Sequence record: ON075799
Length of the DNA: 64,000 nucleotides
Strand: one strand, 5' to 3'
DNA from: Escherichia phage vB_EcoM_TH18
The notes under the pieces were generated by a model, which did no database searches, was not told where the DNA came from, and saw only the letters and a list, made by a program, of their open reading frames with translations. The translations under genes and the position numbers were made by a program. Below are positions 1 through 49,142 of the stretch, piece by piece. Each line of letters starts with the position of its first letter. Position 1 is the first letter of the stretch.

Positions 1-575
1 GCAAGTTTTGCAAAAGGTGTAAATCTTGTTAATTTTGATTTATTGGTTGGTGTAGGATCTTTTTCTACTGTAAATCCTTCCGCTATTAGTTCACGAGAGC
101 TTGTTAAAAATTCACTTATTCCTGCTTGTCCTGGGTCAACACTGAAAATTATGGTAACATCATCACCATCAAAATAAGCCTGTTTCTTAATGATAACATC
201 ACGTTCCCCAGCTTTTTTACAGAATCTCCCCTGCGTTTGAGTTGAATATCTACCATCATCAAAAAATTCAGGACAATAATCACCAGACAAATAGTAAAAG
301 CCATCATTGTCTTTACTTACCTTAACAGATGCTGTAAAGTCAGGATATCTGTTTCCAGATGTTCTTTCTGTACCTGCTTTATCATACGGACGAACAGATA
401 CAACACCGAGAGGTAAGCAGGGAACCTCTTTTAAATAAGATCTCTGGAAATAGTTTGCCCCTTCAGGTCTTGCGTTCCAGTTTCCATGCAATAACTGGGC
501 TTTTTCTACCTCTGGAAGACCTTCAAGGAATGCTAGATAATCTGGGTTATTCTCCAGCATGGGAGGATTATCGAA
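1..575 (-). CDS. terminase large subunit-like protein, 3' exon (partial, continues beyond window start)
   Basis: Minus-strand frame open from ~575 to position 1, translating DNPPMLENNPDYLAFLEGLPEVEKAQLLHGNWN...VTIIFSVDPGQAG; follows the putative intron 3' end; in-frame stop just upstream marks exon start. Confidence 0.5.
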
Positions 576-1570
576 TCCTTGTATTCAAGGTTGGACGCAA
601 CGCCAACCCCCGCACCACTACGTGCTGCTGCATGTCACCATGCAGAGTAGACTATATCACCACCCACACATAATGGGTGCTTCGCTTTTCGAACGCCATT
701 AGCTTGCGATCTACTCCCTTGCGGGATAGTCGTTGAACTACATTACCATTCATAGTTGTTTGAGATATAGATGTAAGTTTTTCTATCTTTTATTCTTCTA
801 ACAAGATTAAAACTAACACCCCATTTTTTAGATATCTTATTAATGCTTAGGATACCGTCTCTCAGATCTTCACATATCCCTATAACTTTGGATTCACTAA
901 TTCTGTTGGAAGAAGGAACCATCCTGAAATTAAACTCTTTAGAAATGTCTGGGTAGACTCTCCCAGCTTTGATACTACTAACCACAGTCTGCCCAATACC
1001 AAACATCTCACTGATATCCTTTACTCTAGCACCCTGCTCAAGTAATCTGCATATCTCAAGGGCAGTGTTATCATCAAGAGGCCTGTAACTGTTTACATAA
1101 GACTTCTTAAGCCCTATTTCATGTGCGTGATGTGTGCTTTCCTTTGCAGTTGTCCACTCAAGATTCCACGCTGCGTTATTAAGTTTGTTTCCATCTAAAT
1201 GGTTCACTTGAGTTTTTGTATCAGGGCTATCATTCTCGACAAAAGCAAAAGCAATAACCCTATGGACAAGAACTTGAAACTTTTTACCATCCTCACACAA
1301 CGTTAACATTGCATAGCCAGTTTTCTTATGGACATTAGGATGTAAAAATTTGTGGGAATACAAACTATAAATTCTTCCATCATACGTCGCACAATAATGG
1401 GAATACCCTAAAAATCCTAAATTTTTCATCTCAAACATTCTCCCTACTACAGTTTCGGAAAAGTAATTATAGCTGCTGATTGCCCTTATACAAAGGGTTT
1501 CCCAGCAATTAACGAAGTTATTCGACATGCATTACTGCATGAAGCCACTATTCTTTTAATGGTTGCGGAA
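576..1570 (-). mobile_element. putative group I intron carrying an HNH homing endonuclease ORF (boundaries approximate)
   Basis: Separates two coding segments of one ATPase gene; R-like (revcomp of gatagtcgtt ~725) and S-like (revcomp of agactatatc ~650) elements in correct order at the 3' end. Confidence 0.5.
743..1528 (-). CDS. HNH homing endonuclease (intron-encoded)
   Basis: 261 aa ORF with HNH motif HRVIAFAFVEN...VNHLDGNKLNN; sits inside the intervening sequence; start codon uncertain. Confidence 0.7.
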   Translation of the reverse strand: MSNNFVNCWETLCIRAISSYNYFSETVVGRMFEMKNLGFLGYSHYCATYDGRIYSLYSHKFLHPNVHKKTGYAMLTLCEDGKKFQVLVHRVIAFAFVENDSPDTKTQVNHLDGNKLNNAAWNLEWTTAKESTHHAHEIGLKKSYVNSYRPLDDNTALEICRLLEQGARVKDISEMFGIGQTVVSSIKAGRVYPDISKEFNFRMVPSSNRISESKVIGICEDLRDGILSINKISKKWGVSFNLVRRIKDRKTYIYISNNYEW

Positions 1571-1902
1571 ATGAAGGAAAATGAAAGCGGTTTAGGCTTT
1601 CTTTTCTCATCCTTGCCATCCCAATACTTTTCAATTAATTCTTGCTCTGAGTCACCCCAGATAAATTCTCCGTCACGTCTTATAAACCATCTAATCACCC
1701 CATCTCGTTCAGGTATAGGATATCCCTCATCGTCTAAATACCAAGAAATCAACTCCTTAATCTTATGATCTGGATCAGGGTTACAAGAGATAACCATCCT
1801 GCTCGGATATTTAGAGTTTGAACGTAGACGAGATATCAGATAATCTATCTGTGACCATGTGAATTGTGTTCCCTCATCAAAGCCGATGAAGGTATACTGC
1901 AA
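1486..1902 (-). CDS. terminase large subunit-like protein, central exon (Walker B region); ORF ends likely run into introns
   Basis: Translation FIGFDEGTQF (hhhhDE Walker B-like) ...IWGDSEQELIEKYWDG; no plausible own start; flanked by intron-like sequence. Confidence 0.5.
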   Translation of the reverse strand: MQYTFIGFDEGTQFTWSQIDYLISRLRSNSKYPSRMVISCNPDPDHKIKELISWYLDDEGYPIPERDGVIRWFIRRDGEFIWGDSEQELIEKYWDGKDEKRKPKPLSFSFISATIKRIVASCSNACRITSLIAGKPFV

Positions 1903-1904
1903 CT

Positions 1905-2160
1905 TATTGTCCCCTCAGTTCGCTACACTGAGGCGGTGTGCCAAGACACCCGCCACATGTTTCCATGTGGAACAGACTATATCTTCCATCCTTGGCGTGC
2001 CGTTTGGATCACCAATCGCTTGTGATTCTACTCTCCTACACTCATCGGAGATAGTCGTTACACCCAGATTTTATATTTCCATATTCTGTGGCACGGTATT
2101 TTCCCATAGGGAGTTCCACCGTTATAGGCACGAAGGGCAAGCTATTCACCCTGATGATCT
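1905..2160 (-). mobile_element. putative small group I intron, no ORF (boundaries approximate)
   Basis: ~250 nt non-coding insert between exons; same R-like (gatagtcgtt ~2052) and S-like (agactatatc ~1975) motifs as the other three intervening sequences. Confidence 0.45.
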
Positions 2161-3512
2161 AATTTGTTATTCTCATACTCCATGTGTCTCCACAACACCT
2201 TTGCCCCAGATGGGAAAATTGCTTCCAGAGCTTTCTCCCTGAACTTCGGCTTCCATTCCTTATCGAGTTGCAAATAAATACTTTTTGCTGTATCAAAAAG
2301 CCCACCTGCACCTGTCAATTGAGGTGTTGTCCTACGAAACATTATACATGCTGTCTGCGGGTCATCGACATAAGCAAGCGGCATCAATTGTAGGAGATAT
2401 GATTTTCCACTATTCCCAGTGACAACCACACAATCTTCTAGTCTGGTAACAAAGAAACCTGTTTGTGTTACAAAGCAGTATTTAAACCCATCCGTAGGTA
2501 TAAACTCTTTAAACTCAGCTTTTCTGTCTTTATTAGCCAGTGACCTTAATCCTTTTCCTCTAGCCATAATATTAACAGTATAACTGTCCTTTCCACTTCT
2601 TGTATCATGGTTTATGGTGGTATTATAACCAAGAGAAGATCCTACAAACTGAACAAAATCAGCGTTCATCTTATGGACAGTAAAATATCTACCTGTAAAG
2701 CTGTTATGTGTTTTACCGCCATATGGCTTACAAAAAGAACCATCCCAATGAAAAATCTCATCAAGTATTATCTCCAGTTGTTCATTTGAACACTGATAGT
2801 ATTTCTCTGTAAATTTTTTATCAGGATATTTAGGCCATACAATAACCTCGTACTGTTCCCCAGTGGTATATCTTTCACTGGGTTTTGATCCTCTATCTTC
2901 ATATCTTAATCCAAACTTTTTACAAAGTTCGATTAAGCGGTCATATTTACGCTTTTTAGCAAAGCGCATCTGTGTATAATTATCTTTCCCTTCTTTAACA
3001 ACTCTCCCATCAGCCATGACAGCAACCTGAAGCCGTAATTCCCCTTCTGTCATGTCTATCCCAGGACCATCATAGTTAAATGTAGTTATGAACTTACCTG
3101 TCCAACCTTTTTTAACAGAGTTGTTATGTCTTTCTGCCACTTCAGAAAAAGAAAGTGTTCTTGGCTGTGATTTATAGTCTGGTTTATAAATCACAGTATG
3201 TTCGTCAGATAGCTCTTGACAAATGCCATTACCTTCTATTCTTGTAAGTTTTTCGCAAGGGAGTTTAACAAACTCTAAAGGGGGGATAAATTTAGCCTCC
3301 CCAGTGGCTTTGTCATATTGCAGAATGTCCTGCCCTGACCATTCTGATATCTTAATCCAGCCAGATGGTGTCAACACCTCGTGGTCTTTAGACAAACACC
3401 CGGCGGCCCCACCAATTATTAGAATTTGGGCTTTACTCTCCAAAATCATTTTTTGCTTAGGACTGGCAGGTCCAAATACTTTACTCAAAAGACCTCCATA
3501 TTTTCTATTCAT
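2142..3512 (-). CDS. terminase large subunit-like protein, 5' exon, with in-frame intein
   Basis: N-terminus ...ILIIGGAAG then intein then SGKSYLLQLM: extein junction reconstitutes a GGAAGSGKS P-loop (Walker A). Confidence 0.6.
   Translation of the reverse strand: MNRKYGGLLSKVFGPASPKQKMILESKAQILIIGGAAGCLSKDHEVLTPSGWIKISEWSGQDILQYDKATGEAKFIPPLEFVKLPCEKLTRIEGNGICQELSDEHTVIYKPDYKSQPRTLSFSEVAERHNNSVKKGWTGKFITTFNYDGPGIDMTEGELRLQVAVMADGRVVKEGKDNYTQMRFAKKRKYDRLIELCKKFGLRYEDRGSKPSERYTTGEQYEVIVWPKYPDKKFTEKYYQCSNEQLEIILDEIFHWDGSFCKPYGGKTHNSFTGRYFTVHKMNADFVQFVGSSLGYNTTINHDTRSGKDSYTVNIMARGKGLRSLANKDRKAEFKEFIPTDGFKYCFVTQTGFFVTRLEDCVVVTGNSGKSYLLQLMPLAYVDDPQTACIMFRRTTPQLTGAGGLFDTAKSIYLQLDKEWKPKFREKALEAIFPSGAKVLWRHMEYENNKLDHQGE
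2412..3398 (-). mobile_element. putative intein with LAGLIDADG-type endonuclease domain (residues ~39-367)
   Basis: Begins CLSKDHEVLTP (block A-like), contains LQVAVMADGR and LEIILDEIFHWDGSF, ends ...VVVTGN before Ser+1; interrupts the P-loop. Confidence 0.6.
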
Positions 3513-3583
3513 ACCATAGAGGGTAGTTTACCACGAATAACGATAAAAATAAAGCCCTTATCATTAAATAAGGGCATTGTCAA

Positions 3584-3877
3584 CTATTTATCTGAAGTAA
3601 ATATTGTCTTTACATACTGTTGTAGCGTTCTTAATTTCATACGATCTTCAGCAGCCTTAATGTTGTTTTTCTTGATCACCTCTATAGCATCCGCATTACT
3701 AAGACCACCTGGCAATTTTTCAGGTTCTTTCGGTGGTATCATAGCTTCAGCGGGTGGTCTTGCTAAGATATCGCTTATTATGATCTCTTTTGCAACAGGA
3801 ACAACTCTCTCAGGCGGTGAAGTGCACCCTGTTAACATCAATAATAGAAAAGGAACCATGATGACACACTTTTTCAT
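3584..3877 (-). CDS. o-spanin-like outer-membrane lipoprotein
   Basis: Signal peptide with lipobox LTGC, proline-rich mature part; overlaps the upstream i-spanin-like gene by 4 nt. Confidence 0.55.
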   Translation of the reverse strand: MKKCVIMVPFLLLMLTGCTSPPERVVPVAKEIIISDILARPPAEAMIPPKEPEKLPGGLSNADAIEVIKKNNIKAAEDRMKLRTLQQYVKTIFTSDK

Positions 3878-4275
3878 TTCACCCCCAGACTATCGTTATA
3901 AATATCAACAAACTGGTTATCTAGGCAAACCTGTTTTCCTGCTTGTGTTTTGCTATAACTTTTAACCTTTTTATCAAGGTCTTCTTTCAGTTGGTTATTA
4001 ATTTCTCTCTCTTTCACCAACATGGTTGACAACTCATCGATCTTATCCTGCTGTTGTTTTTTAAAAGCGTTGTTGTGATCTCTAACTTGCTGGTTAATCC
4101 TCTCCCATTTAAGGTCAGTATCGCTGACACCTGCGTTGTAGGATGATGTTAACTGGTCATTATACCAATGCTTTATCTCCACAACACCCCAAACGAGCAT
4201 CACACAACACAAAACGACACCTATCTGTTTTATGTTCTTAGAAAAGAAAGTTAACAGCGTTTTAAACCATATCAT
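3874..4275 (-). CDS. i-spanin-like protein (N-terminal TM helix plus coiled coil)
   Basis: 133 aa; hydrophobic N-terminus (IGVVLCCVMLVWGVV) followed by charged heptad-rich region. Confidence 0.55.
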   Translation of the reverse strand: MIWFKTLLTFFSKNIKQIGVVLCCVMLVWGVVEIKHWYNDQLTSSYNAGVSDTDLKWERINQQVRDHNNAFKKQQQDKIDELSTMLVKEREINNQLKEDLDKKVKSYSKTQAGKQVCLDNQFVDIYNDSLGVK

Positions 4276-5609
4276 GATATATCACCATCACACTCAATAA
4301 TATTTTCAATCTTCAACGTTGTTTTTCTGTTTTCAGAAATACACAGACTATTAAAATTGCTAATATCGTACTGGATCTTAGATGTATCGCTTACAGAAAC
4401 CTCTAACAGAACTGCTCCAGGCTGATATATTGTAAACCCATAACTATCTCCCTCCCCGTTCTCACACAGAATTTTGTACTCTCCTCTTGCCTCCGCTTCA
4501 TCAACATAAAGTCTGAGAGTTGGAAAATTATTTGCTATATCTTCTTTGTGAAGCCCAACATGATGTTTATCTTTTGTTGGCATCATGAGATAGAAAACTT
4601 CCGCAGGACAAACTCCATATAGTTTTGTAAAATATTTCCTACCTGTTGCTTTTCTTAATCTTTGGAAAATACTGAACATATTAACTTTAGATACATCATT
4701 AAACGGCAACGGTTGCACAGGGGTAACATTTTTGTCTACCTGCTGGCAACAAGATTCTAATCTGTCTAGGAACTCAACCAAAGAATCAAGTGAAAACTGT
4801 TTTGTCTCATCAAAGATATCTGACAGTTTCATTCCGTACATCCCGCTAAGATGTGACTTTGCCGATTCCCAACTTTCTATCTGAAGGCTGGCAATAGCCA
4901 TAGCCAGTTTCATTGTCTCTTTTTTCGAAATTGTATAGCCACGAGATTTGTATTTTTCAGATCTCAAAAGTGATATAATCGGGTATTCAGTCTTATGATT
5001 TACAACTAAGACTCTTTGAGCAATATGTTTTAAGAAATTGCTATCAAATTCCCACACACCATCCTTGAAGTTAAAAGCGCCCATGTTGATTGTAAAATCA
5101 ACTTTGCTAAAGATATCTTCTGTTGTTTTGAACACATCCACAGCAACACACTGTAATACAGGATCCTGCCCAAAGTACAGCGTTACGCTCTTATCTGTCA
5201 CACCAACTCTGGTAAGATTTGGGAGATCATCTTCTTCAAGATGAAAATTTTCACATCTGGACAAAGGGTCTGTGAAACATAAATGCGTATCCTGCCCATT
5301 ATCAAGGTTATAAAAATACCTAAAAGTTCTTTTTTGATTTTCCCATCCGTTTGTCTGTGCGGTTAAATCATACTTTCCACTTAAAAGATTTTTATCCATC
5401 ATGTACGCAATGAATATCTCAAGATTTTCCCAAGATGGGAAATACAAATCAAGATCGTTGACTTTACTATTAGAGAACAAAGAGGTTATTGCCCCGCCAG
5501 CTATCTTAACATCCAGCTTCGACAATAAATCATAAACACCTTTTGGTATAAAAGAGCACAAAATGTCGTACTCTCTTTGAAAATCTTCTTTTTTGAAAAC
5601 ATGCAACAT
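4272..5609 (-). CDS. Pol-beta-superfamily nucleotidyltransferase-fold protein, function unknown
   Basis: Start refined to MLHVFKK (ATG at 5609); motif IAGGAITSLFSNSKVNDLDLYF fits the hG[GS]-x9-13-DhD nucleotidyltransferase signature; long C-terminal domain unassigned. Confidence 0.55.
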   Translation of the reverse strand: MLHVFKKEDFQREYDILCSFIPKGVYDLLSKLDVKIAGGAITSLFSNSKVNDLDLYFPSWENLEIFIAYMMDKNLLSGKYDLTAQTNGWENQKRTFRYFYNLDNGQDTHLCFTDPLSRCENFHLEEDDLPNLTRVGVTDKSVTLYFGQDPVLQCVAVDVFKTTEDIFSKVDFTINMGAFNFKDGVWEFDSNFLKHIAQRVLVVNHKTEYPIISLLRSEKYKSRGYTISKKETMKLAMAIASLQIESWESAKSHLSGMYGMKLSDIFDETKQFSLDSLVEFLDRLESCCQQVDKNVTPVQPLPFNDVSKVNMFSIFQRLRKATGRKYFTKLYGVCPAEVFYLMMPTKDKHHVGLHKEDIANNFPTLRLYVDEAEARGEYKILCENGEGDSYGFTIYQPGAVLLEVSVSDTSKIQYDISNFNSLCISENRKTTLKIENIIECDGDIS

Positions 5610-5660
5610 CTTAGCTATCCTTAAGTACAAAACAAGATGCGTAGAGACTAGCACATAAAG

Positions 5661-5682
5661 AAAAACCCCGCAAGAGGCGGGG
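5661..5682 (-). terminator. rho-independent terminator downstream of the tRNA cluster
   Basis: Hairpin ccccgc-aagag-gcgggg with A-run on plus strand (U-run on minus-strand transcript). Confidence 0.55.
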
Positions 5683-5814
5683 TTAGGCATAGGAGAGGAG
5701 ATTGATTGGATTATTATTATAGTTATTTGAGAAAAGTGGCGAAGGAACCTTTACATGTCGAGAGTGTCTTACCGTTTACTCAGCCACGACCCTCCTTAGT
5801 GTCCACTTTAATTC

Positions 5815-5893
5815 TGGTTGCGAGTATTGGAATCGAACCTGCAATCTTCAGGGTATGAACCTAACATGGTAAATCCATTTCCACCAATCTGCA
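5815..5893 (-). tRNA. degenerate tRNA-like element (anticodon-loop CAU; weak acceptor and T stems)
   Basis: Canonical T-loop GGTTCGATTCC, D stem and anticodon arm TTAGG-TTCATAC-CCTGA present, but T stem and acceptor have several mismatches. Confidence 0.3.
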
Positions 5894-5899
5894 ATAATT

Positions 5900-5975
5900 T
5901 GGTGTGACGGACAGGATTCGAACCTGTGACCACCTAGTCTTCAGCAAGGCACTCTACCAACTGAGTTACCGTCAC
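5900..5975 (-). tRNA. tRNA-Phe (anticodon GAA)
   Basis: Manual cloverleaf: acceptor GTGACGG/CCGTCAC, D arm ACTC/GAGT, anticodon loop CTGAAGA, T loop TTCGAAT, encoded CCA. Confidence 0.8.
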
Positions 5976-5980
5976 ATAAT

Positions 5981-6057
5981 TGGTGGGCGATGAGGGACTC
6001 GAACCCCCAAAATTCAGGTTCTAAGCCTGACATGTATACCAATTCCATCAATCGCCC
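5981..6057 (-). tRNA. tRNA with anticodon UAG (Leu-reading) but short variable arm
   Basis: Acceptor GGGCGAT/ATCGCCC, anticodon arm TCAGG-CTTAGAA-CCTGA, T arm GGGGG-TTCGAGT-CCCTC, CCA encoded; D stem has one mismatch. Confidence 0.55.
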
Positions 6058-6071
6058 ATCTATATTAACAG

Positions 6072-6263
6072 TTATGGTTTTCCACGATACACAGAAATAG
6101 TTTTCCCATTAGCATTGATAACATAAGCGGTCTGATCCTCAGACAAAAACACTTTTTGATCAATGCCGGAAATAGCTATAGACTTTTGATGAGCACAATA
6201 CCCAACAATTTTCCCACAAAAAATTTGTTCATCATTTGGAGAGACGACTTTAACTGTTAACAT
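6072..6263 (-). CDS. small hypothetical protein (63 aa) inside the tRNA cluster
   Basis: Start refined to MLTVKVV with RBS agagga 6 nt upstream; the longer ORF-track start would overlap tRNA-Pro. Confidence 0.45.
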   Translation of the reverse strand: MLTVKVVSPNDEQIFCGKIVGYCAHQKSIAISGIDQKVFLSEDQTAYVINANGKTISVYRGKP

Positions 6264-6305
6264 GGTATCCTCTGTACATTTCTGCTTTGATATGTTTATG
6301 TTTGT

Positions 6306-6383
6306 TGGTCTGTCCGGTTGGATTTGAACCAACGACCTGGTCATCCCAAGTGACCCGCGCTACCCAAGCTGCGCTACGGACAG
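6306..6383 (-). tRNA. tRNA-Pro (anticodon UGG)
   Basis: Perfect cloverleaf: acceptor CTGTCCG/CGGACAG, D arm GCGC/GCGC, anticodon arm GGTCA-CTTGGGA-TGACC, T loop TTCAAAT, CCA encoded. Confidence 0.85.
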
Positions 6384-6467
6384 AGAAATGTAGATTTTAA
6401 TTGTCCCAGAATCTACTAACTGGTATCGCTGGCTAGGTGATATCTGTGACTTGATTAAGTCAAGAAT

Positions 6468-6559
6468 TGGCGGTTCCTGAAGGATTCGAACCTTCGGTGG
6501 GGAGATTCATTCCCAACGGCTTAACAGGCCGTCACCATCGACCACTCGGTCAAAGAACC
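6468..6559 (-). tRNA. type II (long variable arm) tRNA with anticodon GUU; identity uncertain
   Basis: 92 nt; acceptor GGTTCTT/AGGAACC (one G-U), anticodon arm ACGGC-CTGTTAA-GCCGT, ~20 nt variable arm, T arm GAAGG-TTCGAAT-CCTTC, CCA encoded. Confidence 0.55.
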
Positions 6560-6568
6560 TGAATATTT

Positions 6569-6645
6569 TGGTGGATCTGGTTGGGGTCGAACCAACAATC
6601 TCTCGATTAAAAGTCGAGTGACTTAAACCATTTGGCTACAAATCC
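6569..6645 (-). tRNA. tRNA-Lys (anticodon UUU), weak D arm
   Basis: Acceptor GGATTTG/CAGATCC, anticodon arm CTCGA-CTTTTAA-TCGAG, T arm GTTGG-TTCGACC-CCAAC, CCA encoded; D stem poorly paired. Confidence 0.55.
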
Positions 6646-6663
6646 GTTAAATTATCTTTAAAA

Positions 6664-6691
6664 TAGCTAATTACTCGCACATAATTAGCTA
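6664..6691 (-). terminator. hairpin plus U-run (terminator-like) within tRNA cluster
   Basis: Inverted repeat tagctaatt...aattagcta followed on the minus strand by TTTTAAAGA. Confidence 0.3.
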
Positions 6692-6878
6692 TACGCAACA
6701 ACTCTCCAAGGAGAGCACACTAATGATCGATTACGATTATATGACTAAATTTAGACCATCATAAGTGTTTGGCTTACGCCAGTAAAGAGCGGACTGCTCT
6801 GGGGTATCGGTAAGATGGTTGCAGCCATCTACCGAAAAATCACACCAAGCAACTAAACAAGCTACATTAAAGATAACT

Positions 6879-6967
6879 TGGAGGAGGCTGACAGAATCGA
6901 ACTGTCACCATATCTCTACAGCGGGACTGGGTTCAAACCAGCTTGTGCACCATGCACCCCAGCCTCC
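6879..6967 (-). tRNA. tRNA-Ser (anticodon UGA), type II
   Basis: 89 nt; acceptor GGAGGCT/AGCCTCC, anticodon arm GCTGG-TTTGAAC-CCAGT, long variable arm, T arm GACAG-TTCGATT-CTGTC, CCA encoded. Confidence 0.7.
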
Positions 6968-7038
6968 AAAGATAGCCTCTGCCGAGGATATACACCCAAC
7001 AAAGGAGGCGCTCAGGTCAGAAGAAATCTGAGCCTTAA

Positions 7039-7132
7039 TGGAGGAAGATGCCAGACTTGAACTGGCACACCCATTTCTGGGTTACTATCTCCTTAGCAGG
7101 GAGATCCCTTACCAAATTAGGGTTAATCTTCC
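7039..7132 (-). tRNA. tRNA-Ser (anticodon GCU), type II
   Basis: 94 nt; acceptor GGAAGAT/ATCTTCC, 3-bp D stem, anticodon arm TCTCC-CTGCTAA-GGAGA, T arm GCCAG-TTCAAGT-CTGGC, CCA encoded. Confidence 0.75.
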
Positions 7133-7153
7133 AATACCTTAGTAATTAAAAAC

Positions 7154-7243
7154 TGGTGGAGAAGGAGAGAATCGAACTCTCAAGCCGTTTTACCAGTCAG
7201 CACATTTCCAATGTGCTTTCGTCGCCAATCGATTTGCTTCTCC
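7154..7243 (-). tRNA. tRNA-Ser (anticodon GGA), type II
   Basis: 90 nt; acceptor GGAGAAG/CTTCTCC, anticodon arm GCACA-TTGGAAA-TGTGC, long variable arm, T arm GAGAG-TTCGATT-CTCTC, CCA encoded. Confidence 0.65.
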
Positions 7244-7252
7244 GTTTTAACT

Positions 7253-7328
7253 TGGCAGGGGATGGTTGATTCGAACAACCGATCACGGGGTCAAAGCCCG
7301 TTGCATTAGGCCACTATGCTAATCCCCT
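7253..7328 (-). tRNA. tRNA-Gln (anticodon UUG)
   Basis: Perfect cloverleaf: acceptor AGGGGAT/ATCCCCT, D arm GCAT/ATGC, anticodon arm ACGGG-CTTTGAC-CCCGT, T loop TTCGAAT, CCA encoded. Confidence 0.85.
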
Positions 7329-7333
7329 TTTGC

Positions 7334-7410
7334 ACGAGAGTGAGGAATAGAACCTCTTAGTCACTGGTTTTGGAGGCCAGCCTTCACCCAGTGAAGTTAC
7401 GCTACTCTCA
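7334..7410 (-). tRNA. non-canonical tRNA-like element
   Basis: Good acceptor (TGAGAGT/ACTCTCG) and T-loop-like GGTTCTATTCC, but D and anticodon regions do not fold into standard arms; no encoded CCA. Confidence 0.3.
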
Positions 7411-7417
7411 TTAAAAA

Positions 7418-7975
7418 CTATTTTCGAAAAGGACTTATGAAAAATGCCAACATCACTCTCTCTCTTGAAAAAGCTCTGTCTTCAGGAACCACACTCTTCA
7501 GTTTCCAACCGACATAAATTCGCCAGTAAAATTGTTTTCCAAACAATCTAAAAGACGGGACAAACGCGAATACACCCCACGCATTGTCATTCCACATCAA
7601 CAAATAGCCTTGTTGGTTATCCTCCACATCAGAGCTTACATGGAGGTTTCCTTTCCACTTTGTCACAGATGTGATTTCACGTCCAAGTACGTGATAGGAG
7701 AAATTGTAGGCTTTATTTCTCCACAACCAAGCAACTCGTTGTAGGTAAACACCAAAACTTCCTATTTTACGGACTTCTTCCCATCTCTCTATGTGTCCTC
7801 TATCACCGTCTATAGGATTATCATATGTCTCCATCCACCTGAAAATATAAGGCAGATGCCCTGTCTTCTCATTATAGAACGGAACAACAAAAGGAGCCAG
7901 AATAACACAGAGAACCGACATAACTGGGTCAAGAGGTGCTAACAGGATCCACGATAAATATTTTAAGTATCTCAT
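7418..7975 (-). CDS. hypothetical protein (185 aa, hydrophobic N-terminus)
   Basis: ORF from six-frame track; start overlaps stop of upstream gene (ATGA). Confidence 0.5.
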   Translation of the reverse strand: MRYLKYLSWILLAPLDPVMSVLCVILAPFVVPFYNEKTGHLPYIFRWMETYDNPIDGDRGHIERWEEVRKIGSFGVYLQRVAWLWRNKAYNFSYHVLGREITSVTKWKGNLHVSSDVEDNQQGYLLMWNDNAWGVFAFVPSFRLFGKQFYWRIYVGWKLKSVVPEDRAFSRERVMLAFFISPFRK

Positions 7976-8202
7976 GCAGGATCAAGCCTAGATATAATGT
8001 ACTGGTTTAAATCTGAATATGGGAAGATACTTTCAAAGATAACCTGTTTAAATCTGAAGCCGCACAAACCGAAAAGTACCTTCTGACACTCACCAAAAGA
8101 GCAATCTTTACCAACTTTTATCACAACCGTATCGGCAATCTGCACACTTTCTATCTCTTTAGATTCATGATGCCGTACTATGATTACTTTAGAAACCATC
8201 AT
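7972..8202 (-). CDS. hypothetical protein (76 aa)
   Basis: ORF from six-frame track; translationally coupled to downstream gene. Confidence 0.45.
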   Translation of the reverse strand: MMVSKVIIVRHHESKEIESVQIADTVVIKVGKDCSFGECQKVLFGLCGFRFKQVIFESIFPYSDLNQYIISRLDPA

Positions 8203-8327
8203 ACTCGTCCATATTAAAGCCTTCTACTAAAGATAGTAGATGTCTAGGGTTGGACCGCAAACGCAACCCCATGGAATTTGTTACGGTCTTCAGTTGACCC
8301 AAGCGGATTTCATTGACATCTTTTAAC

Positions 8328-8402
8328 TGGAGCATCCAGAGGGTATCGAACCCTCGACTTCAGCTTGGAAGGCTGTAGTTTTCCCAATTAAACTATGGAT
8401 GC
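8328..8402 (-). tRNA. tRNA-Gly (anticodon UCC)
   Basis: Acceptor GCATCCA/TGGATGC, D arm GTTT/AAAC, anticodon arm (A)CAGC-CTTCCAA-GCTG, T arm GAGGG-TTCGATA-CCCTC, CCA encoded. Confidence 0.75.
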
Positions 8403-8407
8403 ATATT

Positions 8408-8483
8408 TGGTGGGAGTGGTAGGCTCTGCCCCTACGTCCTCTCGATTATCGGTCGAGCGATCTACTAACTGATCTACACTCCC
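8408..8483 (-). tRNA. tRNA-like cloverleaf with Ile-type anticodon GAU but non-canonical D and T loops and C at position 33
   Basis: All four stems perfectly paired, CCA encoded, but D loop AGTTAGTA lacks GG, T loop is GGCAGAG (no TTC), anticodon loop is CCGATAA. Confidence 0.5.
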
Positions 8484-8546
8484 AAACTGTACTGGCCCAA
8501 CAACCACGATTGGAGGGTATCGTCACACATCAAAGCCAGTACAGTT
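8484..8546. other. long perfect hairpin (13-bp stem, ~37-nt loop) between two tRNA genes
   Basis: aaactgtactggc (8484-8496) and gccagtacagttt (8534-8546) are exact reverse complements. Confidence 0.6.
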
Positions 8547-8551
8547 TTAGT

Positions 8552-8641
8552 TGGTGTGCCGTGATAGAGTCGAACTACCCGAGTCCCTTTCGAGACAGGA
8601 GATTTACAGTCTCCCCCGCTACCCCTACGGTCTAACGACAC
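8552..8641 (-). tRNA. tRNA-Tyr (anticodon GUA), type II
   Basis: 90 nt; acceptor GTGTCGT/ACGGCAC (one G-U), anticodon arm GGAGA-CTGTAAA-TCTCC, long variable arm, T loop TTCGACT, CCA encoded. Confidence 0.7.
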
Positions 8642-8642
8642 A

Positions 8643-8990
8643 TTAACCTTGTTTGAATTGAACAATATCCGTCGAGAACGGTTTAGCTGCCTTAATAGGT
8701 GCTTTTTCTGAGTTATCTTTTTCGAGTAACTCTTCGTTTTCCTCATCAAAGTAATCAGAAAGCATCTGCTCACCTTTCTCAATAACATAACGAGCTATAT
8801 TTTCTCTGATATTGTCTTTTGTATTCACATTCTTCATCAAATCCCTAAGAACCTGATGAGCTTCAGGAATCATTGCAATCAGATTCGTTTTTAAATCTAG
8901 GATATTTTTCTCTAACTGAATTGCATTAGATTCCTCTTTCAGAGGACGACCTTTTCCTCTTCTACGTTTTGTAAGCTGCTTAGTAGCCAT
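8643..8990 (-). CDS. hypothetical protein (116 aa, basic N-terminus)
   Basis: Start refined to MATKQLTKRRRGKG; the longer ORF-track N-terminus overlaps the tRNA cluster; sigma70-like promoter just upstream. Confidence 0.5.
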   Translation of the reverse strand: MATKQLTKRRRGKGRPLKEESNAIQLEKNILDLKTNLIAMIPEAHQVLRDLMKNVNTKDNIRENIARYVIEKGEQMLSDYFDEENEELLEKDNSEKAPIKAAKPFSTDIVQFKQG

Positions 8991-9009
8991 TTTAAAACCC
9001 CACTTAATG

Positions 9010-9039
9010 ATATTATCAAATAAAAACATATCTGTCAAG
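9010..9039 (-). promoter_or_regulatory. sigma70-like promoter (TTGACA, 18-nt spacer, TAATAT)
   Basis: Minus strand reads TTGACA...TAATAT shortly upstream of the ATG at 8990. Confidence 0.5.
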
Positions 9040-9075
9040 TGGTATTTTAACATATTTACCAAGAAATTGAAAGTT

Positions 9076-9152
9076 TGGAGCACGGTGTCGGACTTGAACC
9101 GACATATATCTGTTTTGCAGACAGATCCGTAACCAAATTCCAGCAACCGTGC
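9076..9152 (-). tRNA. tRNA-Cys (anticodon GCA)
   Basis: Acceptor GCACGGT/ACCGTGC, anticodon arm TCTGT-CTGCAAA-ACAGA, T arm GTCGG-TTCAAGT-CCGAC, CCA encoded; D stem weak. Confidence 0.65.
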
Positions 9153-9228
9153 AATAAGTACCCCAGGTAGAGAACCTATAGAGTGGGTCTTACGAGCCGC
9201 GCTGACGATTCTCAAGTTGGGGTTAATC

Positions 9229-9305
9229 TGGTCGAGGAGACAGGATTCGAACCTGTGACCTACGGCTTAGAAGGCCGCTGCTCTATCCAACTGAGCTACA
9301 CCCCG
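9229..9305 (-). tRNA. tRNA-Arg (anticodon UCU)
   Basis: D arm GCTC-AGTTGGATA-GAGC, anticodon arm GCGGC-CTTCTAA-GCCGT, T arm ACAGG-TTCGAAT-CCTGT, CCA encoded; acceptor has one mismatch. Confidence 0.7.
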
Positions 9306-9505
9306 AAAATAAGAATGCTTTATAGTGTATGGTTACTCAACCTCACTCCAACTTCCACAGTTGGTGCTCTACGAGCATGACTACGTTTGAAATCAACGTT
9401 GCGCACCGATAGCTTTCTCACGCATTGTATGCCTCATTCCCAACAAATGCTGATCAGACATTTATATCGAATAATATAAGCTAATACACTATAAAACAAA
9501 CTTGT

Positions 9506-9602
9506 GGCTGGGTGATGGAATCGAACCACCTATGTATTCAACGGCTTCCCCGTCTATTTTCAGGATTATAAATCCTCGCCCTTGCCAAAGGGCTTACCCA
9601 GC
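9506..9602 (-). tRNA. over-long (97 nt) tRNA-like element, anticodon arm ambiguous
   Basis: Perfect acceptor (GCTGGGT/ACCCAGC), D arm GCCC-TTTGGCAA-GGGC, T arm GGTGG-TTCGATT-CCATC; central region has only a 4-bp stem with loop TTTATAA and ~30 extra nt; no encoded CCA. Confidence 0.35.
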
Positions 9603-9604
9603 AT

Positions 9605-9679
9605 TGGTGCTCGCAGCAGGTTTCGAACCTGCAACCCCCTGCTTACAAGGCAGGTGCTCTACCGTTGAGCTATACGAGC
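9605..9679 (-). tRNA. tRNA-Thr (anticodon UGU)
   Basis: Acceptor GCTCGTA/TGCGAGC, D arm GCTC/GAGC, anticodon arm CCTGC-CTTGTAA-GCAGG, T arm GCAGG-TTCGAAA-CCTGC, CCA encoded. Confidence 0.85.
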
Positions 9680-10044
9680 AATAAGACATTGCTTCCGATT
9701 AACAGCCTTGAGGCTTTACAGACCATATCTTGTGAGCCATAACCTGTGCCAAGGATTTCAGATGATAAACGAAATTTTATCTTTCAAGAGTCAACTTTCA
9801 AGTTTCATCTTTTACATTTAACCATTGACCTTTATTGTATGAACTTTTACTTAGTGGAAACAACAAGGCATCTTCGTGTGCCTCGCTGCATCTATGTCCT
9901 GTATTATCCTCATACATATACGATACATGGTGGGGGATATTTAACCTCCAACCCCCAGGAGGCAAGATGATGTAAACTTCGTTAATCAAAAGCAATGTTT
10001 TAAATTTCAAAACAAAGGAACGATAATGATATTATCAGAGCCTT

Positions 10045-10692
10045 TTAGAGAGAGTGCTCAATCTCAATTTCTGTCTTAGCGTTTGACTCAGACAACGCAA
10101 AATCAACGTTAGACAAGAAATCTTCAATCTCTTCTTCAAGAGAACGAATCTTAGAAGCCAGTTCAAGAGGATCCACAACCGATGGTGTGTTCATCATTCG
10201 AATAGGAGCTTCCACAGTCTTAATCTGCTCTGCATCTGGCGCTTTATCACGTTGGATATATGGCGCTCTTGCATTTTCAAGTTTATCTTCCAGAGATTTT
10301 TCTTCTTTTGCCAGAAGAAGCTGTGCAGAAGCACGCTGTGCACAAAGTTTGTTTAACAACTCTTGTTTAAAGCAAATCGTCCGTTTGCGTTCGATTGCCT
10401 CAGCAACTGTCATAGACACATTACCAATTTTGACAATTGTCTCAGCATTAGACTTAACAATTTTTGCTTTCAGTTCATCACGCACTGCCAAGAGGTCTTG
10501 CAGACTTTGATAGTCGTTGATCGCAGATTTCTTAAAATCATCAACAGAGCCGATATAACCCGGAATCTTACAATTATTCTCAGTTCCTTTTGCAATCTTA
10601 ATACAATCAAGATTGTAGATACGCTTATTGATCTTATCTTCAATTTTAGAGATAGAAGCAAGTGCACGAGTTACGGAAATCTTAGTAGACAT
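10045..10692 (-). CDS. hypothetical protein (215 aa, charged coiled-coil-like)
   Basis: ORF from six-frame track; charged, heptad-like composition. Confidence 0.55.
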   Translation of the reverse strand: MSTKISVTRALASISKIEDKINKRIYNLDCIKIAKGTENNCKIPGYIGSVDDFKKSAINDYQSLQDLLAVRDELKAKIVKSNAETIVKIGNVSMTVAEAIERKRTICFKQELLNKLCAQRASAQLLLAKEEKSLEDKLENARAPYIQRDKAPDAEQIKTVEAPIRMMNTPSVVDPLELASKIRSLEEEIEDFLSNVDFALSESNAKTEIEIEHSL

Positions 10693-10765
10693 GCGATCTC
10701 TCCTATGTAAATCAGCTTTGATAAAGTAACTATCCAGAAAAACAAAAACTATGTCAAGAAAAATT

Positions 10766-10957
10766 TTAATCTTTTACAGCATCTTTTATAGAATCACAAA
10801 GATCTTGAACAACATCAGATGTCGGTGACAAAATCATCTCGTCGGCTGCTGCTATAGCATCTGATGCTAAATCAACAAACGGAGTTGTTACCGCAGAAGT
10901 CACTTCAACAGCCGTTATTGTTACTTCGCTTGCAATCTTAAGCAAAGATCCTATCAT
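10766..10957 (-). CDS. hypothetical small acidic protein (63 aa)
   Basis: ORF from six-frame track in an otherwise gene-free gap. Confidence 0.4.
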   Translation of the reverse strand: MIGSLLKIASEVTITAVEVTSAVTTPFVDLASDAIAAADEMILSPTSDVVQDLCDSIKDAVKD

Positions 10958-11033
10958 AATCTCAACCCTCCTGAATATCCGTGATTCCCTTTATTTAACG
11001 ACGCTGGCTCACGGTGGCACTCTCGTCAATAAA

Positions 11034-11357
11034 CTATTTTTTAGTTTTCTTACCGTTTTCTACAGAAATGCTTGTTTTCTGTTTCGCTTCTCGTTCGCGC
11101 TTTGTTTTCCCAGTGCGAATACGATATGAAGCAGAAATAACTTCACCACCAATGACACGAGACACAGATTCGTAATACATTTCAGTATTACCGTCTTCAT
11201 CTTTGCGTTTTTTCAGAACTGCTACAGTTTGCGTTTTACCACCAAGGCGCACATCGTGCGGTGCAGAATGTGTCTGCGTGGATTTTGATCCAAACTGAAA
11301 AGGTTGCTTTATCGCCTCGATAGCTGACACCTTTTTAGCAGACTGTTTCTTAGCCAT
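11034..11357 (-). CDS. hypothetical basic protein (107 aa)
   Basis: Start refined to MAKKQSAKK with strong RBS ggagga upstream; lysine/arginine-rich. Confidence 0.55.
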   Translation of the reverse strand: MAKKQSAKKVSAIEAIKQPFQFGSKSTQTHSAPHDVRLGGKTQTVAVLKKRKDEDGNTEMYYESVSRVIGGEVISASYRIRTGKTKREREAKQKTSISVENGKKTKK

Positions 11358-11408
11358 TAAGTTTTCTCCTCCGAAAACAATAAACATAGTTTATTTCGTG
11401 TGCCACAT

Positions 11409-11485
11409 TTGGTGGCCCCTGCTGGACTTGAACCAGCGACCAAGCGATTATGAGTCACCTGCTCTATCCAACTGAGCTAAGGGGC
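11409..11485 (-). tRNA. tRNA-Met (anticodon CAU; initiator/elongator/Ile2 not distinguished)
   Basis: Acceptor GGCCCCT/AGGGGCC, D arm GCTC-AGTTGGATA-GAGC, anticodon loop CTCATAA, T arm GCTGG-TTCAAGT-CCAGC, CCA encoded. Confidence 0.8.
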
Positions 11486-11818
11486 CGAATCTCTTAATAT
11501 GAGATGATATTATCCTGTATGATCTACATTGTCAAGAGATATTTTAAAATTTTATACATCCCAGTTTTCTTCTTGATAACAACCTTCCCCGAATCCAACT
11601 TCTTTTTCAAAATCAATACCTTTTTTCATACATTCCTCACATTAACAGATATTGTTTTCAAACTCAAAACGTAAAATACGAACTCTGTCAATACACTGCT
11701 GTAATCTACAAAGCAACAACTCAACTTGTTTATGCGTCTCTTCAGTATACGTTTTGGTCATCTTGCTTTTCTCCGTGATCTTTTCATTGCAGCTTCTGCA
11801 CGTCTTTGTTTACGATTT

Positions 11819-15382: not shown

Positions 15383-15452
15383 CGAGAATGCTACTCATAA
15401 CACCACACAATGTCAACCCCTCCCATATGTCCCCATTTCAGGGACATTATGA

Positions 15453-46879: not shown

Positions 46880-47240
46880 TGATGAAACGAGTTTGTCAGA
46901 TAATCTCTTTCGATTAATCCTGGGTATGCTTCTTTAAGTTTTGTGGCAAATTTATAACACAGAGATTCTGCCGATGTACCGCTGCTTTCGCAGTATTTTC
47001 ACGGACTAGACTATATCACGATCTTGTGACCACTCACAAGACCCTCCACATTTCGCCATTCAAGGCTACTCTACTCGCTTCTTCACATCAGGTGAAGCTG
47101 ATGCTATGCTTTCGATAGTCGTTAGAGACAATCTCTTGCCTACGGGGTTAGCTCTGCCCCAACAGGGTTTAGCCTTTCTTACCAGCTTATTGTTTATTCA
47201 GCTATGCCCGTTTAGTGGAGTTATTCGACAACCATCACTG
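46880..47240 (-). mobile_element. putative group I intron in nrdD (no ORF; boundaries approximate)
   Basis: ~360 nt non-coding insert between nrdD segments; R-like gatagtcgtt (~47120) and S-like agactatatc (~47003) elements. Confidence 0.5.
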
Positions 47241-47753
47241 GTTGAAGGCCCAATTGTGTTTAGGCGTGCCATATAGGCTAAATGCTAAACCACTTCGCTC
47301 TTTAAAATCAGCACAAATATCCTTCATATATTTCAAGATATTCATTGCCATCTCTTTACGAACTGGTTCGCCATACAAAATTTCAACTGCTTCATAAAGA
47401 CCCACATAGCCAATACTGATTGATGCGTAGCCATTAAAGAAGAGTTTACTAATCTTTTCATCAGGTCCGAGCCGTGCAATAGCCCCCTCCATAAACATTG
47501 TGGGATTCTGGGATGCTTTTACATCCATCAATCTACCGACTCTAACCATGTGCGCTTTATACGCCATTTCCATGTGCTTTTCAAGCAATTCGGTAAACAG
47601 AGTTTTCTTAGATTTTGCTTCTGCTGCAATCATAGGTAAGTTTAGAGAGACAACACCAAGATTGAATCTACCATCATATTTCTCACCATGTTCTGTTGCA
47701 TAATAAGATAAGAAACTTCTACACATTATGTTCGAAGTGGTTCGCAAGGCCAC
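47235..47753 (-). CDS. nrdD: anaerobic ribonucleotide reductase NrdD, central exon (ORF ends extend into introns)
   Basis: In-frame segment between two intron-like inserts, assigned to nrdD by position; true exon limits likely ~47245-47725. Confidence 0.6.
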   Translation of the reverse strand: MALRTTSNIMCRSFLSYYATEHGEKYDGRFNLGVVSLNLPMIAAEAKSKKTLFTELLEKHMEMAYKAHMVRVGRLMDVKASQNPTMFMEGAIARLGPDEKISKLFFNGYASISIGYVGLYEAVEILYGEPVRKEMAMNILKYMKDICADFKERSGLAFSLYGTPKHNWAFNQ

Positions 47754-47985
47754 TCCCGCACCACTACGTGCTGCTGCATGTCACCATGCAGACCAGACCA
47801 TATCTTCATGCTTAAAGCATGTCTGCCGTTTGGGGTGTCATCAGCTTACACTCTACATCCCTACATTCATCAGGATTGGTCGTTAGGCATTTACGGTTGA
47901 TACCGATTTAGCACGGGATTCCCTCCATAGAGGATTCCCCCGTTTAGGCAGATTTTACATGAGCAGTTATAGTTTACCCATGCTT
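47726..47985 (-). mobile_element. putative group I intron in nrdD (no ORF; boundaries approximate)
   Basis: Non-coding insert with a 38-nt block (47755-47792) identical to one in the terminase intron (609-646); S-like agaccatatc and R-like ggtcgtta elements. Confidence 0.5.
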
Positions 47986-49142
47986 GTAACACGCCCGTCT
48001 GAAGAACCTGTTACCTTTTTATTCAACGGTACAGATATGAAATCTGGATAAATCCTTTCAACACAACACTCCATGGCTAATTGCTTTAAGTCGTAGTTGG
48101 GATCGCCAGGTTTCATGTTTACACCATCTTCCAAGAAGAAGATAACTTTTGGAAAAACAGGTGTGACTTTGTCTTTGCCAAGTCCGTTTTTGTGAACAAG
48201 AAGATAATTCTTTGTAATCATTCTCCCAAAATAGGAAGTATCAAGCCCAAGACTCAAGGTGATAAATGGGCATTGACCGTTAGCACTCATCAAGGTATTT
48301 ACCTGATAAAGCAATGTCTGCATAGCATCGTAAACATCTTTTTCCGTCATCTGCATAGCTACACCTTCTGGGTCTGGCAGCCATTGCTCCTGACAAAATT
48401 TTAGATTTTTATCGTAACTTGCCTTGGCATATTGTTTTAATCCTTCATCAATATGGGTGTATGACTGACCACCATATTGAACCGAAGAAACTGATTGGGA
48501 TATCTGGCTAAGAATGGTACAGGCAACACCTATCGATTTCGGCTTTTCTATTTTTGCATTGCCAATTTTAAAACCGTTCTCCAACATATCCCTATAATTT
48601 ACAAGACTGCAATTAGTTAATGGGCTTATCAAATAATCTAAGTCATGTATATGACCATAACCATTTGTATGCCATTCAGCCAATTCTTTTGGTAGAATTT
48701 GAGTTAGTGAGACGTGCTTGCTAAGGATACCCGCGAGAAGATCACGATGGCTACTAACCACCCCACTTGGTTTATTAGCGTTTTCTTTAGTAAATTCATC
48801 GGCAGTTTGTTCTAAGAATCCCGTAATATCTGCAAACAGTTTTCCTTTACCTTCCCTAACGTTATCACGCGTTTTACGATATTCAATATACGCCCGTGCA
48901 GCGTTCTTGAGGTCAAGATCCATTAGTGAATCTTCCACAATGCGGTGAATATCACAAACAGCCACTTTCTCTTGCGGTGGTTCTGATTTTTCCAGAGTTT
49001 CATAGGCTTGCTCGCCAACTGCACACGCCAGAGGATATGATTTCTCACCATAACCAGCAGCAATTAAAGCGGCTTCTGCCGCTTTAATAACTTTCACACC
49101 ATCATAATCTTCTTCACGCCCATCACGTTTAACAACTTTCAT
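47967..49142 (-). CDS. nrdD: anaerobic ribonucleotide reductase NrdD, 5' exon (N-terminal region)
   Basis: N-terminus MKVVKRDGREEDYDGVKVIKAAEAA (ATP-cone-like); ORF 3' end likely runs a few codons into the intron. Confidence 0.75.
   Translation of the reverse strand: MKVVKRDGREEDYDGVKVIKAAEAALIAAGYGEKSYPLACAVGEQAYETLEKSEPPQEKVAVCDIHRIVEDSLMDLDLKNAARAYIEYRKTRDNVREGKGKLFADITGFLEQTADEFTKENANKPSGVVSSHRDLLAGILSKHVSLTQILPKELAEWHTNGYGHIHDLDYLISPLTNCSLVNYRDMLENGFKIGNAKIEKPKSIGVACTILSQISQSVSSVQYGGQSYTHIDEGLKQYAKASYDKNLKFCQEQWLPDPEGVAMQMTEKDVYDAMQTLLYQVNTLMSANGQCPFITLSLGLDTSYFGRMITKNYLLVHKNGLGKDKVTPVFPKVIFFLEDGVNMKPGDPNYDLKQLAMECCVERIYPDFISVPLNKKVTGSSDGRVTSMGKL

Follow-up and report, generated by a model that had tools for sequence, protein, structure and literature searches.

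Whether the terminase-like reading frames at the left end of the Escherichia phage vB_EcoM_TH18 sequence (record ON075799; a stretch of 64,000 nucleotides (nt), called the window below and numbered from its first letter) are several genes or one gene in pieces is the question addressed here. Over positions 1–3600 the window is 100% identical to scaffold 1 of Escherichia phage 18-1-2 (OK136180.1, 64001–67600; Avunavirus, Vequintavirinae), and the identical sequence is also present in the sibling records 19-1-2 and 24-2-1, three GenBank records in total. In GenBank the locus is given as three separate 'terminase large subunit' coding sequences (CDSs) and an 'HNH homing endonuclease'. The reading argued for below, at a probability of about 0.9, is that positions 1–3512 of the minus strand hold one large terminase (TerL) gene with one intein and two group I introns, as an initial annotation made from the letters of the sequence had suggested.

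Reconstruction of the terminase gene

Minus-strand open reading frames (ORFs) at 2142–3512 and 1486–1902 are present as first annotated, and an open frame from ~575 leaves the window at its left edge; the ends at 2142 and 1486 had to be revised, being read-through into introns (true exon ends 2148, 1902/1559 and 576). Removal of a 329-codon in-frame insert (3398–2412) and of two non-coding inserts (2147–1903 and 1558–577) restored a TerL ORF of 507 amino acids (aa). Because the window edge cuts exon 3, this exon was completed from the GenBank record; ~225 nt and the stop codon lie past position 1 (OK136180.1 63775). On the proposed reading the features are as follows.

3399–3512 (−): TerL exon 1, N-extein part, with one half of Walker A at its end (...IIGGAAG); start codon ATG (3512) or TTG (3488), the TTG being the choice of GenBank and of the homologues
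2412–3398 (−): intein, 329 codons, in frame; Cys1...Thr327-Gly328-Asn329, then Ser+1
3186–3212 (−): intein block B (LSDEHTVIY) with Ser64 (B:7), His67 (B:10) and Val69 (B:12); no Trp at B:12
3000–3038 (−): LAGLIDADG motif 1 (LRLQVAVMADGRV, ...MADG, Asp130), helix 118–130; matched by I-DmoI
2733–2777 (−): LAGLIDADG motif 2 (LEIILDEIFHWDGSF, ...HWDG, Asp219), helix 205–218
2412–2483 (−): intein blocks F and G; KYCF with Cys308 (F:4), CVVVTGN with Thr327 (G:5), penultimate Gly328 and Asn329
2148–2411 (−): TerL exon 1, C-extein part, SGKSYLLQ... to ...KLDHQG; the last codon is GGU, its U preceding the 5' splice site
1903–2147 (−): group I intron 1, 245 nt, no ORF, between codons G126 and L127
1559–1902 (−): TerL exon 2, LQYTFIGFDEGTQF... 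(Walker B) to ...SFISAT-I(AU)
577–1558 (−): group I intron 2, 982 nt, within the Ile241 codon (AU/A), before Phe242; terminal G at 577
743–1429 (−): putative HNH homing endonuclease gene in intron 2, 228 aa, I-HmuI-like, with a C-terminal helix-turn-helix
1–576 (−): TerL exon 3, from (A)-FDNPPML... on, with the nuclease domain; truncated at the left end of the window

In terminases of the Terminase_6 (T4-like) type an N-terminal ATPase domain, whose Walker A and B motifs are contiguous, is followed by a C-terminal RNase H-like nuclease domain. Both domains are there once the three inserts are removed: the joined protein matched Pfam Terminase_6N with 87.5 bits (cut-off 22; E = 1.3e-24; profile positions 1–213 of 215) and Terminase_6C with 32.1 bits (cut-off 22.6; E = 2.5e-8), which confirms the terminase-large-subunit identity. 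The full-length Terminase_6N match was obtained only after the pieces had been joined; exon 2 alone gave 1e-9. Many uninterrupted TerL homologues of 493–515 aa were returned by a public protein search, the best of them 87% identical.

An alignment of the spliced protein to phage TerL proteins, proposed as a check in the initial annotation, was made with nine uninterrupted homologues; the joined protein is colinear with them, no gap falls at any of the three junctions, and the residues across these (GGAAG-SGKS, HQG-LQY and ATI-FDNP) are invariant or nearly so; full invariance holds for GGAAGSGKS, QGL and I-x-DNP. The three ORF segments read, as had been supposed, as one protein. Six uninterrupted loci from IMG/VR are contiguous at the nucleotide level exactly at all of the insertion points of the window; the boundaries of the intein, of introns 1 and 2 and of the exons were set on the gapless protein junctions and these contiguous loci. 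With the spliced protein as query, the IMG/VR locus search yielded uninterrupted and Av-05 loci only (used for the junction alignment) and no new copies of intron 1. Against the related Av-05, exon 3 differs by 14 synonymous and 1 non-synonymous changes, and the TerL exons are evidently under strong purifying selection.

The public Av-05 record (KM190144.1; its two ends, loci L014 and L011) was found to be opened inside a TerL intron, with exon 2 inverted between two introns that have similar cores; this arrangement is most likely an assembly error. For this reason Av-05 was rejected as a full reference allele, and only its exon 1, intein and exon 3 were used.

The intein and its splicing route

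The 329-aa insert sits, as the initial annotation had placed it, exactly in the P-loop: nt 3398–2412 separate GGAAG from SGKS and split the Walker A loop. Its identification as a LAGLIDADG-type intein was borne out by fold; sequence searches nearly miss it. A domain search of the 456-aa ORF, also proposed at the outset, yielded no Pfam match; the isolated intein gave LAGLIDADG_3 at E = 0.068 only (13.9 bits; cut-off 22.5), and phmmer against the PDB reached E = 0.38 only. Fold and profile searches were therefore used. A 19-member family alignment (A3) served as input to the AlphaFold model and for the residue conservation counts; the model (pLDDT 90.4, pTM 0.89) matched in Foldseek the TliVMA intein (7qsu, E = 2e-14), then PI-SceI and PI-PfuI (down to 3e-9), its middle domain the LAGLIDADG enzymes I-DmoI and I-Tsp061I (E ~1e-5), and its Hint part the AceL NrdHF class 3 intein (E ~1e-5). 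Double-motif LAGLIDADG enzymes have an alpha-beta-beta-alpha-beta-beta-alpha fold with two LAGLIDADG helices, the last residue of each being acidic. In the model the Hint splicing domain is interrupted by a two-motif LAGLIDADG endonuclease domain in which both acidic residues are kept (D130, D219), and the insert appears to be of this double-motif type. The Hint fold, in-frame insertion at a conserved site and intein-less alleles (the six contiguous loci) are found together.

Within the 19-member alignment Cys1, Gly13, Trp14, Glu66, His67, Lys306, Tyr307, Cys308, Phe309, Gly328 and Asn329 are invariant, and conservation of Thr327 is 90% or more; all family members that were looked at have Ser+1. 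A search for homologues of the insert located the family at the same position (GGAAG/C...GN/SGKS) in other TerL genes; related inteins lie in primase/helicase, PhoH-like and DnaB/KaiC-like ATPases, the visible flanking residues there being likewise Walker A, and others in genes annotated as RtcB, RecD-like and ribonucleotide reductase (RNR). The nuclease domain is decayed in the inteins of Av-05 and of two further members (P0034, P0136) and is deleted, leaving a mini-intein, in three (P0138, P0071, P0077); such decay and deletion is what the homing cycle leads one to expect. The intein and its 98% identical copy in the Logan assembly L018 differ by 11 synonymous and 6 non-synonymous changes (pN/pS ~0.14), and the intein too is apparently under purifying selection.

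Two observations on the insertion site were made in passing. The Ser+1 codon (2409–2411), at the presumed endonuclease target, is AGT here and TCA in all six intein-less relatives (L006–L013). A second, unrelated intein type was seen in three metagenome TerL homologues (P0082, P0104, P0115), three residues further along the P-loop (after GK, before S or T); its first residue is Val or Ala and its C-terminus ...THN, and the P0082 intein has Trp two residues past the block B His (EHLW) and Cys in block F, the typical class 3 signature.

The splicing route was considered residue by residue. The features required of class 1 are there: Cys1, the block B His67, the invariant C-terminal Asn329 and Ser+1. 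The penultimate His (G:6) and Asp F:4, typical of class 1 and not obligatory, are replaced by invariant Gly328 and Cys308. Class 3 inteins have no N-terminal nucleophile, whereas Cys1 is invariant here; of the WCT triplet (Trp B:12, Cys F:4, Thr G:5), two of three residues are found (Val69, Cys308, Thr327). The intein combines Cys1 with the class 3 triad (Cys F:4, His B:10, Thr G:5) at class 3 spacing, the family agreeing with class 3 inteins in the distances from C to T (19 residues) and from C to N (21). A few WCT inteins with Ser1 or Cys1 have been recorded, and Trp B:12 is required in the typical class 3 inteins tested.

On this composition the class 1 route is considered the probable one. 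Splicing by the class 3 route, in which Cys308 (F:4) would attack the N-terminal junction with the help of the His67–Thr327 triad and Cys1 would be dispensable, is possible and rather unlikely. For it speak the invariance of Cys308, the near-invariance of Thr327 and the spacing; Ser+1, insertion in a P-loop and a host protein of helicase-like kind, as class 3 inteins typically have; and the nearest solved relative by sequence profile (family profile search, E = 3.4e-8) as well as by Hint fold, the AceL NrdHF intein, which likewise has neither Trp B:12 nor a penultimate His. Class 3 splicing is proven for this intein (PDB 6zgq; Hoffmann et al. 2020, PMC7891396), whose triplet is Met-Cys-Thr and which shares Ser B:7, His B:10, Cys F:4 and Thr G:5 with the present one; it differs in its N-terminal Ala, its naturally split state, the lack of an endonuclease domain and its location in an RNR-related gene. 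Against the class 3 route, Cys1 is invariant in 19 of 19 family members, which argues that Cys1 is used, and Trp B:12 is absent. A dual or some other route seems improbable. It may also be suggested, tentatively and with some doubt, that the family is a living intermediate between classes 1 and 3, which would splice by either route or resemble the 'standard phage intein' that has been proposed as the origin of class 3 inteins.

The two group I introns

In the whole 64-kb window the core pair AACGACTAT...GATATAGTCT is found at two places only, one per gap, against an expectation of 0 from 100 shuffles; R- and S-like core motifs had been pointed out in these gaps in the initial annotation. Rfam Intron_gpI (RF00028; search over 1.8 kb, gathering score 50 bits) matched at 1953–2203 (34.5 bits, E = 1.2e-6), at 628–819 (31.6 bits, E = 9e-6) and, in the 5' half of the larger gap, at 1361–1568 (21.4 bits, E = 0.01); the group I search proposed in the initial annotation thus gave matches in both gaps, all of them below 50 bits. 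For intron 2 the match is split by the nuclease ORF. Introns at homologous sites in rV5, RudolfGeigy and the locus L020 score 84–96 bits in the same model. At group I splice sites a U ends the 5' exon and is paired with G in P1, and G is the last intron base. Both gaps have these canonical splice sites and a drawable group IA core; together with the Rfam matches this upholds their assignment to group I, and guanosine-dependent self-splicing of both would be expected.

Intron 1. The 5' exon ends in ...AGGGU, P1 being formed by AGGGU/GA with UUGCCCU (U.G pair at the splice site); the 3' end is ...AAUAAG/UUG with the terminal G. There is no P2; P3–P9, P7.1, P7.2, P9.1 and P9.2 can be drawn, and the core P3–P8, including the P3/P7 pseudoknot, consists of canonical pairs only. 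All 71 of the 71 pairs in the hand-drawn structure are canonical; 98.6% of cells pair, compared with 33–51% when the partners are slid. ACGACUAU and GAAGAUAUAGUCU agree with the Rfam consensus (P7 and J8/7 regions). Intron-less alleles are contiguous at the site. With three known copies that are nearly identical, covariation is uninformative; the sole variable helix is P9.2, in which the L018 stem is different and fully paired (this hairpin, mis-registered by MAFFT, was checked by folding). Of the phages collected in GenBank, the three sibling records alone were found to have intron 1 in full; it is also present in two independent Logan assemblies (L018, L019), in which the part exon 1–intein–intron 1 was recovered. 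An exact-pattern search of IMG/VR with GTGCCTATAACGGTGGAA gave one match, rejected as a chance occurrence in a coding region with no group I signal. The intron 1 core shares 72–74% identity with two other introns, one in a Kuravirus primase gene and the sunY-type nrdD intron of T4-like phages; with the T4-type nrdD (sunY) group IA2 intron the identity is 72% over ~105 nt (P7 through P7'), whereas intron 1 lies in a different host gene, has no ORF and is shorter. The sunY intron is likewise without P2 and has several P9 hairpins.

Intron 2. The 5' splice site follows ...ACCAU and the 3' end is ...CAAGG before AUUCGAU; P1 is formed by CCAU/UA with UAGUGG, including a U.G pair, P2 through P9.2 can be drawn, and AUUC with GAAU is a possible P10. 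The HNH gene is looped out of P6, its stop codon adjoining the P6 3' strand. With ORFs removed, 96.8% of cells pair, versus 34–49% with the 3' partners slid (three sequences; modest support), and compensatory changes were counted in 6 pairs (P2, P5, P6, P8, P9.2) versus 0–1 in the slid controls (three sequences only). RudolfGeigy has at the same site an ORF-less intron (Rfam 95.6 bits) that aligns over its full length to intron 2 of the window minus the ORF; in rV5 the same site (ATI/FDNP) holds intron 2 with an HNH gene, at ~75% DNA identity. The ORF (743–1429, 687 nt; 743–1528 at its longest) lies in the larger gap, where an HNH homing endonuclease had been predicted, and its protein matched Pfam HNH_3 above the cut-off (27.7 bits; cut-off 24.8), phrog_59 (1.1e-46) and PDB 1u3e, an HNH homing endonuclease (E = 3e-10). 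It has the sequence features of an I-HmuI-like homing endonuclease: the N-terminal and HNH regions align with I-HmuI (the HNH nickase of the SPO1 DNA polymerase intron, 1u3e), and both are intron-encoded; by contrast the C-terminal DNA-binding part of the predicted protein is longer, with two helix-turn-helix-like stretches.

What is established about homing endonucleases, inteins and group I introns would lead one to expect the following pathway. TerL would be transcribed as a single pre-mRNA, from which two group I ribozymes would excise themselves by guanosine-initiated transesterification, joining GGU/UUG (G126-L127) and AU/A (Ile241); the predicted spliced junctions are ...CAUCAGGGU-UUGCAGUAU... 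and ...GCAACCAU-AUUCGAUAAU... The mature mRNA would be translated into an 836-aa precursor with its Walker A loop split by the intein; self-excision of the latter would ligate GGAAG to SGKS and release active 507-aa TerL and the free LAGLIDADG endonuclease. In mixed infections the LAGLIDADG enzyme and the HNH nickase would cut or nick element-free TerL alleles, and repair would copy the elements in. Intron 1, having no nuclease of its own, would presumably spread together with its neighbours, which lie 264 and 344 nt off in spliced coordinates, by co-conversion, or with the help of a trans-acting nuclease.

Several circumstances weigh against the reading as one interrupted gene. What GenBank holds of the phage are 'partial genome' scaffolds, obtained from marmot samples; all three Rfam matches in the window fall below the gathering score; the Pfam and PDB sequence searches barely detect the intein, which is without the penultimate His; the core helices of intron 1, invariant across near-identical copies, carry no covariation support, and its P8 has only 3 base pairs (bp); and RNA splicing, protein splicing, nuclease activity and the homing route are inferred for this locus.

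It is very improbable that the inserts do not splice and that TerL is a fragmented pseudogene or a set of separate polypeptides that assemble (as those of the Aeh1 NrdA, split by mobE, are reportedly made). The three separate CDSs in GenBank, a possible TTG start of exon 2 preceded by GAGGGG, the sub-threshold Rfam scores of both introns and the one HNH-containing insert of Pectobacterium phage CB7 that stayed unspliced (PMC7344957) would fit such a state. Exon 3, however, does not open with a start codon, and the third annotated terminase CDS, which begins at an internal Met, loses the conserved FDNPP; the canonical U/...G/ junctions rebuild invariant residues exactly; with 329 aa inserted in it, the P-loop is unable to bind ATP; and the exons are under strong purifying selection with the ribozyme cores intact. 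That the architecture arose as an artefact of scaffold assembly is hardly credible: the window does join two scaffolds, and the related Av-05 record is visibly mis-assembled in TerL, but three GenBank records agree over the entire 3.6 kb, the part from exon 1 to intron 1 was recovered independently in two Logan assemblies, and the reading frame is exactly restored.

A narrower alternative, improbable as well, concerns intron 1 by itself, which might be a decaying, nuclease-less remnant that self-splices poorly and needs a protein cofactor or limits TerL expression. It has the weakest core (34.5 bits, the 3-bp P8, no P2, no obvious P10, no ORF), and some Bastillevirinae introns are spliced in vivo and not in vitro (PMC11878797). 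Decay is contradicted by the 71 proposed pairs, canonical throughout, by P7 and J8/7 sequences that fit the consensus, by the nearly unchanged state of the intron in three GenBank records and two independent assemblies, and by the pairing maintained in its one variable hairpin. The interpretation as one TerL gene with an intein and two spliced introns is retained.

Distribution, known systems and implications

The elements are present in relatives in different combinations. Av-05 has the intein with its decayed nuclease domain and the rV5-type intron and is without intron 1; locus L022 has the intein and one intron; in L018 (5348–5817) and L019 (1879–2371) intron 1 is followed, 33 nt downstream, by the rV5-type intron, the two flanking an 11-codon micro-exon (LQYTFIGFDEG) with Walker B. 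The first intron of rV5, RudolfGeigy and Av-05 lies at FDEG/TQF (G137/T138), 33 nt downstream of the intron 1 site HQG/LQY; that of rV5 is different in sequence and longer, scores 84.9 bits (84–85 bits in rV5 and RudolfGeigy) and is absent from 18-1-2. Two more distant TerLs with the same intein family (L020, 5372–6603; L021, 5402–6403) have an HNH-containing intron 1 nt downstream (GGGU/UA) of the intron 1 site, and L020 has a further intron at D135/E136 (91.4 bits). At least five intron sites are thus found in the TerL family (G126/L127, one nt further, D135/E136, G137/T138 and I241/F242), and two intein sites in the same TerL P-loop, with every combination of presence, absence and nuclease decay among the relatives. 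The mosaic distribution therefore points to independent mobility of the elements.

Among the closest described systems is the TerL gene of rV5 (Vequintavirus), which is in three segments with two introns, an HNH gene being carried by one of these (Kropinski et al. 2013, PMC3606486). It belongs to the same protein family (~68% identity) and has intron 2 at the same site; it differs in having no intein and its first intron at another site. The possibility that the two published rV5 introns are the same two as here was rejected for intron 1, site and sequence both being different. TerL P-loop inteins of mycobacteriophages splice and cut intein-less TerL DNA (Kelley et al. 2016, PMC5050341), and like the present one they are inteins with a homing endonuclease inside Walker A of TerL. 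As quoted, their classic site is Lys/Thr and a second site lies one residue off, while here the insertion is three residues upstream (G/SGKS); the host phages are unrelated, and the intein family here differs in Cys1 with Cys F:4 and in the penultimate Gly.

The stacking of several homing elements in one conserved enzyme gene has parallels in two published cases: CB7 NrdA combines a LAGLIDADG intein and an HNH intron in one gene (PMC7344957), and Bastillevirinae TerL genes have two or three introns with small internal exons (PMC11878797). The CB7 TerL intron, for which splicing was seen by reverse transcription PCR (PMC7344957), occupies the D135/E136 site. Each kind of element is already known, and current understanding is not overturned. 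An intein together with two introns in one TerL appears to be a combination unreported for Vequintavirinae-type phages in the literature searched, in which neither the intein nor intron 1 of Avunavirus/Vequintavirinae TerL is described. An intein and a group I intron also share one gene in bnrdE of the Bacillus prophage SPbeta.

Elsewhere in the window the following was observed. The sequence passes from OK136180.1, which ends at 15447, to OK136181.1 of the same phage 18-1-2, which starts at 15448, so that spans across this join are not contiguous DNA. A third group I intron at 47774–48014 (−) scored 79.8 bits, above the Rfam gathering score; by reading of the translations it splits a putative nrdD-type anaerobic ribonucleotide reductase (ORFs 47967–49142 and 47235–47753). 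The nrdD gene of T4 also has an intron. A large tRNA gene cluster lies at 5815–11486 (−), upstream of the spanin and TerL genes, with 12 genes at 5815–8641 (ARAGORN) and more up to 11486 (Rfam). The 472-aa ORF at 4272–5690 (−) adjoins the spanin-like genes; its L018 homologue bears the precomputed label PF26128 (Gad2), unconfirmed by our own Pfam scan of the 472-aa ORF, which gave no match at E ≤ 0.01.

The annotation of the locus is corrected from three 'terminase' CDSs and an HNH gene to one TerL gene (join 3512/3488..2148, 1902..1559, 576..), the product of which would need two RNA-splicing events and one protein-splicing event. The Cys1 and Cys F:4 signature of the intein bears on how class 3 splicing arose. 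In this TerL family homing elements are densely packed in the ATPase motifs, a homing-element hot spot, and the Vequintavirinae TerL gene is a convenient natural system for the study of competition and co-conversion among neighbouring homing elements.

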